Below are positions 17,323 through 17,740 of a stretch of DNA of 31,024 nucleotides, piece by piece (position 1 is the first letter of the stretch; the number at the start of each line of letters is the position of its first letter). The translations under genes and the position numbers were made by a program. The DNA comes from Escherichia coli (lineage in GTDB: Bacteria; Pseudomonadota; Gammaproteobacteria; Enterobacterales; Enterobacteriaceae): the NCBI RefSeq assembly GCF_003334305.1, contig NZ_QOWS01000035.1; one strand, given 5' to 3'. Below the pieces are notes generated by a model. The model saw nothing but the letters and a program-made list of their open reading frames with translations. It searched no databases and was not told where the DNA came from.

Positions 17323-17436
17323 GACGGAATGTAAGAACGTAAATTTATTCCGAGCCGCTACGGAAGATGAAAAACGCAAGGTTGTTGAAAGCGTTGTGTT
17401 TTTTTATGGTAGTGCCGTCAGCAGGAATGTTGTCCA

Positions 17437-17480
17437 GGGCGAAAAGCTTCTTCCTCGTTTCGCCCTGCCTTTCTTAAAAA
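17437..17480 (+). terminator. candidate intrinsic terminator of the thi operon
   Basis: GGGCGAAA / TTTCGCCC 8-bp stem with a 13-nt loop, followed by TGCCTTTCTT, about 115 nt after the thiH stop. Large loop and interrupted U-tract make it weak. Confidence 0.35.
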
Positions 17481-17569
17481 TTCCGTAATGCAAAGTCTGA
17501 AGCCATCGCCTGTTGAGCAATGAAAGAGATCTGATTGTAAGAGAGTAAATACTCAACTATGATAGAGAC

Positions 17570-17738
17570 GAAAATAAGAACACATGTTCTCATCTTCCAG
17601 GATGCAGCAGACTGAAGAAATTCAGACATCCCGCAACCTGCGATTATCGCAAGGTCAAGGCAAAGTCCGGTAATGGCGTTCTGAATACCAGAGATAATTC
17701 TCTGGCGAAACCCACCTTAAGGTGGGTTTTGTTATTTT
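17570..17738 (+). ncRNA. sroH: putative small RNA (SroH-like) in the thiH-yjaZ spacer
   Basis: Sigma-70-like promoter TTGTAA (17535-17540), 17-nt spacer, TATGAT (17558-17563). About 165 nt downstream are two 3' hairpins (cagaga-taat-tctctg at 17689-17704; aaacccacc-ttaa-ggtgggttt at 17707-17728) and a U-tract. No ORF of 60 aa or more. An sRNA named SroH has been reported at this position as far as I recall; the ends here are inferred. Confidence 0.45.
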
Positions 17739-17740
17739 GA
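17707..17740 (+). terminator. intrinsic terminator (possibly bidirectional) at the yjaZ 3' end
   Basis: Perfect 9-bp stem, 4-nt loop, then TTTTGTTATTTT on the plus strand. A-run before and T-run after could also let it terminate yjaZ on the minus strand. Confidence 0.7.

Follow-up and report, generated by a model that had tools for sequence, protein, structure and literature searches.

The small RNA SroH of Escherichia coli is encoded in the spacer between thiH and yjaZ, and we found that sroH and yjaZ form a linked pair that has diverged together, occurs in two gene orders and moves among genes of plasmid maintenance and defence. The analysis started from a 31,024-nt E. coli contig (NZ_QOWS01000035.1, assembly GCF_003334305.1), referred to below as the window, and all coordinates are positions in it. 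SroH has reportedly been on the list of E. coli K-12 small RNAs since 2003 without a function, and yjaZ is one of the poorly characterized y-genes of E. coli; pairing them turns two orphans into one directly testable pair, a single mobile unit with a covarying RNA fold. We tentatively propose that SroH is the dedicated RNA partner of YjaZ and most likely neutralizes it by binding the protein, in a toxin-antitoxin system resembling type III.

The spacer after thiH carries a stand-alone gene for SroH

The stop codons of thiH (ending at 17322) and yjaZ (17732-17734) bound a spacer of 409 bp (17323-17731), the length given in an earlier note on this DNA. The same note named SroH at this locus, correctly: the spacer sequence does not differ from that of E. 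coli K-12 MG1655 (100% identity), whose annotation has the noncoding RNA sroH (b4691) at exactly this place, and Rfam family RF00372 (sroH) matched over its full length (model positions 1-161; 201.1 bits against a gathering threshold of 80). The unit at 17570-17730 is thus the already known small RNA gene.

A promoter scanner recovered the sigma-70-type promoter that the note had described (TTGTAA-17-TATGAT, 9/12). Sites of this quality are common, with three found against 1.5 expected in 1.2 kb; the -10 element of this one ends 6 nt upstream of the annotated SroH 5' end (17570). Comparable promoters precede most homologues: in 24 distinct upstream regions, the best promoter scored 9-11/12 in 18 and 6-8/12 in six, and a 17-nt spacer is also typical of the promoters at most homologous RNA loci. 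The best-scoring -10 ends 8 nt before the motif GGAUGC in 11 of the 24 regions. These RNAs would therefore start just upstream of GGAUGC, which makes the first ~30 nt of E. coli SroH a lineage-specific leader.

At the 3' end we found the two stem-loops and the U-tract noted earlier. The terminator stem is part of a perfect 11-nt inverted repeat (17708-17729) followed by UUUUGUUAUUUU; a terminator scanner made no call here because the T-run is interrupted. The stem is clear of the yjaZ stop codon, contrary to the earlier claim that the terminal hairpin overlaps it: only the U-rich tail does so, and the annotated RNA ends 1 nt before the stop. The UUUGUUA tail is kept even at loci with no yjaZ opposite. 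Read from the sequence of the yjaZ strand, only UUUCGCC follows the shared hairpin, and the terminator is probably bidirectional. The predicted fold of the 172-nt transcript is far more stable than those of shuffled sequences (z = -4.6).

No open reading frame (ORF) of at least 60 amino acids lies wholly inside the spacer, as the note had stated; the longest have 51 and 50 amino acids on the minus strand and 36, 30 and 29 on the plus strand. The 29-amino-acid ORF (17584-17673) is not conserved, and the ORF that starts at a conserved AUG varies from 1 to 52 amino acids across homologues, with differing stops and no conserved end; a conserved small ORF, for which the note had proposed a check, was rejected. 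In the helices of the RNA alignment, G.U pairs outnumber A.C mismatches by 29 to 8, a bias that points to the SroH strand. SroH is a stand-alone gene with its own promoter and no conserved ORF.

In E. coli, sroH and yjaZ make up a single accessory cassette

We counted yjaZ and sroH separately in 5426 complete E. coli genomes and found them in 3738 and 3740, respectively; both are present in ~69% of the genomes and both absent from ~31%, and most of the spacer is covered in 3729 of them. Aligning the locus to strain SYNB1934, a Nissle derivative, and to EC43, in both of which rpoC follows thiH after 241 bp, delimited a cassette (Table 1); about 31% of the complete genomes have ~26 bp (GTGAAGAATTTGCCCTCTGAATAACA) in its place. 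Its left edge could extend rightward to ~17523. The cassette comprises the sroH promoter, sroH, yjaZ and the yjaZ upstream region, while the thi hairpins and the rpoC terminator stay in empty-site strains. The upstream region (18272-18431) is not conserved with plasmid copies, and the scanner found no sigma-70-type site on its minus strand. Identity of at least 99% within E. coli was seen in 3734 of 3742 sroH records versus 2943 of 3738 for yjaZ. A transposition signature was sought and rejected: we found no direct repeats flanking the cassette and no tandem repeats in 17480-18440.

Strain 504838 carries an IS1 insertion at the empty thiH-rpoC site. At the left edge of the cassette, the 11-mer AATGCAAAGTC (17487-17497) nearly repeats a segment around hairpin P3b of the RNA, AAGGCAAAGTC (17657-17667), which may be chance or a trace of the origin of the cassette. 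Three E. coli 'plasmids' of 1.0-4.9 Mb in PLSDB (CP061233.1, NZ_CP134663.1 and NZ_OL790696.1) contain the chromosomal sroH-yjaZ locus and look like chromosomes or misassemblies.

The RNA adjoins yjaZ across taxa, plasmids and gene orders

Homologues of YjaZ (precomputed Pfam PF27200) are patchily distributed over Enterobacterales, Aeromonas, Oceanimonas, Thiolinea and cyanobacteria, and the family comprises 704 cluster representatives at E <= 0.001, nearly all stand-alone proteins of about 170-190 amino acids. A contig search with the single YjaZ protein returned one close relative, and a search with an 18-base gapped DNA pattern gave mostly chance matches, which were filtered afterwards. In a sample of ~30 distinct loci, an SroH-type RNA gene adjoins every yjaZ homologue examined (28-100% identity). 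In each of the fetched loci with 47-89% identity, an Rfam sroH match of 70-195 bits lies directly after the yjaZ stop in convergent orientation. These loci come from a plasmid-size contig of E. fergusonii, from Raoultella, from Enterobacteriaceae plasmids (with ParA, ArdC, UmuD-like and Tn3 neighbours), from Salmonella, Pantoea and Serratia, from Aeromonas (beside a tRNA gene and a P2/HP1-like prophage) and from a Waterburya cyanobacterium. Among homologues of 47-98% identity, including metagenome and prophage-like contigs, the RNA is convergent and at most about 30 nt from the yjaZ 3' end in each locus whose sequence extended past that end.

The association also holds for distant relatives. 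YjaZ-like genes of 28-36% identity from Pseudomonas, a Klebsiella IncR plasmid, Pantoea and Vibrio are each adjoined by a divergent RNA with the same architecture. On Vibrio pVA1-type plasmids (18 records), this RNA and the yjaZ-like gene share a strand and the RNA comes first, with 25 nt between the end of its terminator and the start codon of the gene. The functional tie to yjaZ that the earlier note had suspected is thus strongly supported by linkage in E. coli, in other taxa and on plasmids.

The module is common on plasmids. PLSDB contains 104 plasmids with close SroH-type DNA and 559 with a YjaZ-like protein; the Klebsiella-type RNA occurs in a further 445 plasmids and the Pseudomonas-type RNA in 32. 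On ColE1-type plasmids of 2.4-5 kb, which hold an RNAI replicon, the sroH-yjaZ module is the main cargo. Among its neighbours are HigB-like toxins with helix-turn-helix partners, RelE/ParE, genes for restriction or methylation, ArdC, UmuDC and transposases. These results demonstrate that the RNA and YjaZ are linked, have co-diverged in two gene orders and are mobile among maintenance and defence genes. Modules of this kind reside on several hundred clinical plasmids of Klebsiella, Enterobacter, Serratia and Pseudomonas, and on the Vibrio pVA1-type plasmids, where they could matter for plasmid persistence. Carriage by phages was considered and rejected: a collection of 50,697 sequenced phages contained no match to the RNA or to YjaZ, and the 'viral' contigs that carry the RNA are prophage-like or plasmid-like.

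The hosts of the tandem version are plasmids of Vibrio parahaemolyticus, V. owensii and V. harveyi, many from diseased shrimp. In V. parahaemolyticus pVPTJ15-3 (locus L175, 1256-2013), UUUGUUAUUUCUGGGG is kept after the RNA terminator; in convergent loci this sequence is the complement of the C-terminal codons of yjaZ, and in the tandem loci it may be a relic of rearrangement. In the 2462-bp ColE1-type plasmid pB1022 of Proteus mirabilis (L169, 1148-1810), yjaZ is split into ORFs of 117 and 81 amino acids beside an intact RNA, which reflects either a real inactivation or an error in sequencing. In Pantoea, the yjaZ-RNA module has a DUF2913 gene next to it (L017, 1682-2269), as do RNAs that lack yjaZ on IncFII plasmids (L172 and L173, both 2285-2884, the latter with an NYN-domain gene as well); this gene could be a third associated gene or reflect only shared plasmid synteny.

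SroH has a conserved, covarying multi-helix fold

We derived the architecture of the RNA from 20 distinct sequences. It consists of a stem-loop domain, a three-way junction, a linker, a further hairpin and the terminator (Table 1). A MAFFT alignment made without reference to a structure shows pairing in 93.8% of its helix cells and double changes in 17 pairs; the covariation score was 0.341 against 0.130 for shuffles (0 of 500 reached it) and at most 0.07 for slid controls, these controls not being formal probabilities. A covariance-model alignment of 26 sequences, which leans towards its model, gave 95.9% pairing, compensatory changes in 21 of 34 pairs and a score of 0.385 against 0.129. P3, the variable hairpin, forms in 24 of these 26 sequences and measures 12-111 nt there; the two exceptions had been truncated when they were extracted. 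From E. coli to cyanobacteria, about 60 alignment columns do not vary, and many of these are unpaired. The structure line of Rfam RF00372 annotates the terminator hairpin only, so the structure of SroH extends beyond the current Rfam model.

A second subfamily, from Pseudomonas and Klebsiella, keeps the architecture and covaries in P1, P2, P5 and P4; in Pseudomonas, for example, P1 becomes GGGUG/CACCC. Its junction sequences differ from those of SroH (GUUACAGGG, CCUGCCC and GCUGAG). The UCUG of linker J4 is complementary to the CAGA of loop J1, and the second subfamily has CAGG in J1 and CCUG in J4. This single compensatory event is suggestive of a J1:J4 pseudoknot.

Several other readings of the RNA were tried and dropped. 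CUGAAUA, a stem and CGAAA recall a hammerhead, but by eye the essential G8 is absent, the second subfamily lacks the motif and Rfam gave no ribozyme match. Short matches of SroH to 16S ribosomal RNA (rRNA) prompted a test for rRNA mimicry: local alignments to 16S and 23S rRNA were no better than those of shuffled sequences, with a modest excess of shared 6- and 7-mers. A repeat of UUCUGAAUAC (17679-17688 and 18380-18389) could have been a shared protein-binding motif. The copy upstream of yjaZ, a 10-nt match in the same sense, is not conserved, being mutated in close relatives and absent elsewhere, and we attribute it to chance.

The YjaZ model resembles RelE-type toxins weakly

YjaZ goes by the NCBI name 'stationary phase growth adaptation protein'. 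In local Pfam-A, PADLOC and PHROGs libraries the protein had no match, matching only its own NCBIfam model, and no sequence relative was found in the PDB. An AlphaFold2 model (predicted local distance difference test 88, predicted template modeling score 0.84) showed a beta-rich globular fold. The top structural matches of this model by two methods were RelE/ParE/HigB toxins, with weak scores; the top Foldseek match was HigB2 (E = 0.024, probability 0.85). A search of AFDB50 with the model returned uncharacterized relatives only. Sequence homology to RelE was rejected, as an hhalign profile-profile comparison with a RelE family profile gave 0.2% probability. The RelE-like core of the predicted YjaZ structure is a weak structural lead rather than a family assignment.

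SroH as a candidate RNA antitoxin of YjaZ

Together, these data led us to a tentative model. SroH would be transcribed from its own sigma-70-type promoter as an RNA with a ~135-nt core and a ~30-nt Escherichia-specific leader. The core folds into a P1/P2 stem-loop domain with an invariant internal loop, a P5/P3/P3b three-way junction, hairpin P4 and the terminator, and YjaZ would recognize the folded RNA directly through invariant junction nucleotides. Binding would keep a RelE/ParE-like YjaZ inactive or otherwise control it, and the pair would stabilize plasmids or islands or act in defence. We infer the binding, the toxicity of YjaZ and the direction of control from addiction-like carriage on minimal plasmids, a toxin-like predicted fold, the tandem layout in Vibrio and decoy-like RNAs without yjaZ, which are our reasons for reading SroH as a neutralizing antitoxin.

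Those last RNAs form a minority of the distinct RNA loci. On IncFII/IncI plasmids and two metagenome contigs, an orphan RNA is convergent to the relE gene of a relBE operon, with a tyrosine recombinase next to it; a further orphan sits in the cargo region of a P2-like prophage, and yet another precedes a DNA cytosine methyltransferase gene. Most orphans retain all conserved motifs (130 bits), while the one at locus L063 is decayed. RelE was considered as a general partner of the RNA and rejected. RelE homologues of 83% and 67% identity in Yersinia and Aeromonas have no RNA alongside, which makes the relBE-linked copies lineage-specific orphans.

Published observations on SroH are few. It is variably present among E. 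coli strains (PMC3318445). PMC5389530 describes full-length and processed molecules that carry 3'-terminal poly(A), names poly(A) polymerase I as the enzyme responsible and states that the 'function is still unknown'. SroH bound kbl mRNA in one in vitro gel shift (PMC6172242) and accumulates in stationary phase, where it gives a Northern blot signal (bioRxiv 10.64898/2025.12.22.696124). It was described as 'not an established Hfq target' and was enriched in one Hfq data set from photoactivatable ribonucleoside-enhanced crosslinking and immunoprecipitation (bioRxiv 10.1101/2020.06.29.178624). A viable sroH deletion that is sensitive to envelope stress is cited second-hand, through PMC5389530. 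The searchable literature assigns SroH no function, in agreement with the earlier note, and in it we found no paper that links SroH to yjaZ and no description of the multi-helix fold, the wide mobile distribution or the obligate pairing with yjaZ. The small RNA gene is already known, whereas the module, the RNA fold, the second RNA subfamily and the link to a toxin-like protein appear to be new to that literature.

Several points weigh against SroH as an antitoxin. The deletion cited in PMC5389530 is viable and has only an envelope-stress phenotype, which is difficult to reconcile with an essential antitoxin unless expression of yjaZ is low or yjaZ was damaged by the deletion as well. Intact RNAs exist without yjaZ, beside relBE, in the P2-like prophage and before the methyltransferase gene. 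The RNA is non-repetitive, unlike type III antitoxins, and at most loci the two genes converge. Simple co-inheritance of two linked genes with separate functions would likewise produce adjacency and co-divergence.

The same linkage, co-divergence and structure would be expected if SroH served YjaZ as a scaffold, guide or activating cofactor in a ribonucleoprotein, as Y RNA does for Ro60 (Rsr), with a role that would lie in RNA surveillance, in stress or stationary-phase adaptation or in defence. The viable deletion and its mild phenotype, as cited in PMC5389530, fit a cofactor better than an antitoxin, and both the accumulation of SroH in stationary phase and the NCBI name of YjaZ point the same way. 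YjaZ, however, has neither a TROVE domain nor another Pfam-A match in the local library, orphan RNAs that lack the protein gene are harder to reconcile with a cofactor, and a module that is the main cargo of tiny ColE1 plasmids and lies near genes of toxin-antitoxin and defence systems looks more like one for selfish maintenance or defence than for housekeeping. We consider a cofactor role unlikely on balance. A type-I-like antisense mechanism, which extends the earlier note's proposal that the RNA 3' end pairs with the yjaZ 3' untranslated region (UTR), is improbable. Here yjaZ transcription would read through the weak reverse terminator, and SroH would pair with the 3' extension to cause decay or a block. 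The genes are indeed convergent and abutting at nearly all loci, read-through is likely with so short a run after the hairpin on the yjaZ strand, and the par/Fst and TxpA/RatA type I systems are, as is generally known, convergent pairs with a shared terminator. Yet the overlap amounts at most to the shared terminator and tail, which leaves the pairing unsupported as a conserved function. The Vibrio tandem layout keeps the association without complementarity, and intact RNAs persist without yjaZ. Pairing needs neither ~60 invariant nucleotides, many in unpaired junctions, nor a covarying multi-helix fold kept from Enterobacterales to cyanobacteria, and YjaZ is a 179-amino-acid soluble protein rather than a small membrane peptide. 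Antisense control may add a layer where the genes are convergent.

We think it very improbable that SroH is an ordinary trans-acting small RNA that pairs with chromosomal mRNAs (kbl, envelope-stress genes) and lies near yjaZ incidentally. The kbl gel shift, the single Hfq enrichment and the deletion phenotype cited in PMC5389530 speak for it. Against it, the plasmids and islands that carry the RNA belong to hosts as distant as Pseudomonas, Vibrio, Aeromonas and cyanobacteria, which are not expected to share a chromosomal target; the RNA comes and goes with yjaZ and is missing from 31% of E. coli strains; and its conservation is structural rather than of the short-seed type. Studying SroH as a target-hunting Hfq small RNA is thus probably the wrong framing. 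The remaining alternative, which the earlier note had named as the one that would overturn its own reading, is a processing product of the thiH 3' UTR or the thi transcript. The RNA does have the orientation of thiH, and the terminator scan gave no strong canonical site separating the two; but two hairpins separate thiH from the promoter, the RNA has its own conserved promoter, the unit is missing while thiH is intact in 31% of strains, and the RNA recurs in dozens of contexts without thiH. We give this origin practically no credence.

If the candidate antitoxin role of SroH is correct, a YjaZ toxin checked by a single structured RNA would be a new architecture among RNA-antitoxin systems. A broader proposal, possible but somewhat more doubtful than the antitoxin role, is that the module represents a new mobile RNA-protein class, in which an RNA of ~135 nt, non-repetitive and containing a three-way junction and probably a pseudoknot, specifically binds and controls a ~180-amino-acid protein with a RelE-like core for addiction or anti-phage defence, and that the class has two or more co-diverged RNA-protein subfamilies, the SroH type and the GUUACAGGG type of Klebsiella and Pseudomonas plasmids. 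Were this so, the orphan RNAs on plasmids and prophages would be anti-addiction or anti-defence decoys.

Features of the locus and the thi-side half of the spacer

The earlier note described a hairpin in the upstream half of the spacer that may end the thi transcript. That role is plausible, but there are two hairpins rather than one (A and B in Table 1); both are kept in E. coli strains without sroH and yjaZ, and they probably end the thi transcript. A 36-amino-acid ORF, MKNARLLKALCFFMVVPSAGMLSRAKSFFLVSPCLS (17367-17477, plus strand), covers both. A 10-nt inverted repeat, TTTTTTATGG/CCATAAAAAA, connects the tail of hairpin A (17400-17409) with a site just outside the right edge of the cassette (18433-18442), beside the rpoC terminator. 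Elsewhere in the window, a thiamine pyrophosphate (TPP) riboswitch (RF00059, 74.8 bits; 11777-11877, plus strand) precedes the thi operon, as expected for the thiC leader, and a match to RF00630, 'Pseudomonas sRNA P26' (74.5 bits; 27066-27127, minus strand), is a two-hairpin element in the ribosomal-protein/rpoBC cluster.

Table 1 Features of the sroH-yjaZ locus, in window coordinates
Feature	Position	Strand	Basis or remark
thiH stop	ends 17322	+	
Hairpin A after thiH, weak stem flanked by an A-run and a U-run	17369-17404	+	Minimum-free-energy fold; candidate thi operon terminator
Hairpin B, 10-bp G+C-rich stem CAGGGCGAAA/TTTCGCCCTG, then CCUUUCUU	17435-17467	+	Inverted repeat I3 and fold; second candidate thi terminator
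sroH-yjaZ accessory cassette, ~945 bp	17487-18431	.	Alignment with SYNB1934 and EC43
sroH promoter (-35 TTGTAA, 17-nt spacer, -10 TATGAT)	17535-17563	+	Promoter scanner, 9/12
SroH RNA as annotated, 161 nt	17570-17730	+	Rfam RF00372, 201.1 bits; K-12 b4691 at the same position
SroH 5' leader with small hairpin	17570-17599	+	Escherichia-specific, outside the conserved core
Domain 1 (P1, J1 and P2)	17600-17631	+	
P1, GGAUG/CAUCC	17600-17604 with 17627-17631	+	Nearly invariant; encloses J1 and P2
J1, invariant loop CAGCAGA	17605-17611	+	
P2 hairpin	17612-17616 with 17621-17625	+	4/5 pairs compensatory
Three-way junction	17632-17678	+	P5 enclosing P3, P3b and invariant CCGGUAA
P5 long-range helix, CGCA/UgGCG	17632-17635 with 17674-17678	+	100% paired; 3/4 pairs compensatory
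P3 variable hairpin	17636-17655	+	
P3b small hairpin	17659-17667	+	
J4 invariant linker UUCUGAAUA	17679-17687	+	Invariant columns
P4 hairpin, CCAGAG/CUCUGG	17688-17705	+	5/6 pairs compensatory
Conserved CGAA after P4	17706-17709	+	
Terminator hairpin and U-rich tail UUUGUUAUUUU	stem 17710-17727, tail 17728-17738	+	Inverted repeat I1; 5/7 pairs compensatory
yjaZ stop codon	17732-17734	- (complement)	
yjaZ (formerly htrC), 179 amino acids	17732-18271	-	NCBIfam NF007263, 430 bits; precomputed Pfam PF27200
yjaZ upstream region inside the cassette	18272-18431	-	Cassette boundary

Comparison with known RNA-protein and toxin-antitoxin systems

Ro60 (Rsr) and its Y RNA resemble the SroH-YjaZ pair as a sporadic, horizontally moving combination of a protein gene and an adjacent dedicated structured noncoding RNA, but YjaZ lacks the TROVE domain and the RNA architecture is unrelated. 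The RelE/ParE/HigB toxins provide the best, weakly scoring structural matches of the YjaZ model, and an orphan SroH-type RNA on IncFII/IncI plasmids faces a genuine relE. YjaZ differs from these toxins in having no sequence-profile similarity to them, twice their size and no attached protein antitoxin gene, and close RelE homologues elsewhere lack an SroH-type RNA.

Type I systems such as par/Fst (RNAI-RNAII), TxpA/RatA and BsrG/SR4 share the convergent genes, the abutting 3' ends and a probably bidirectional terminator. Their toxin, however, is usually a small hydrophobic peptide, whereas YjaZ is a soluble protein with a beta-rich globular model. The possible overlap of sroH with yjaZ is confined to the shared terminator and tail, the association survives the loss of antisense geometry in the Vibrio tandem loci, and SroH is deeply conserved in both sequence and structure.

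Type III systems (ToxIN, CptIN and TenpIN) likewise place an RNA gene beside a protein gene on plasmids and islands. The order of RNA, terminator and protein gene in the Vibrio lineage is that of toxIN, while the window and most other loci are convergent instead. Type III antitoxin RNAs consist of tandem repeats, whereas SroH is a single multi-helix unit, and the YjaZ model weakly matches folds of the RelE/ParE type rather than ToxN or AbiQ; PADLOC returned no match. The closest likeness would lie in the proposed logic, by analogy with an RNA that binds and neutralizes its protein. Phages carry pseudo-ToxI decoys, and the orphan SroH-type RNAs recall them.

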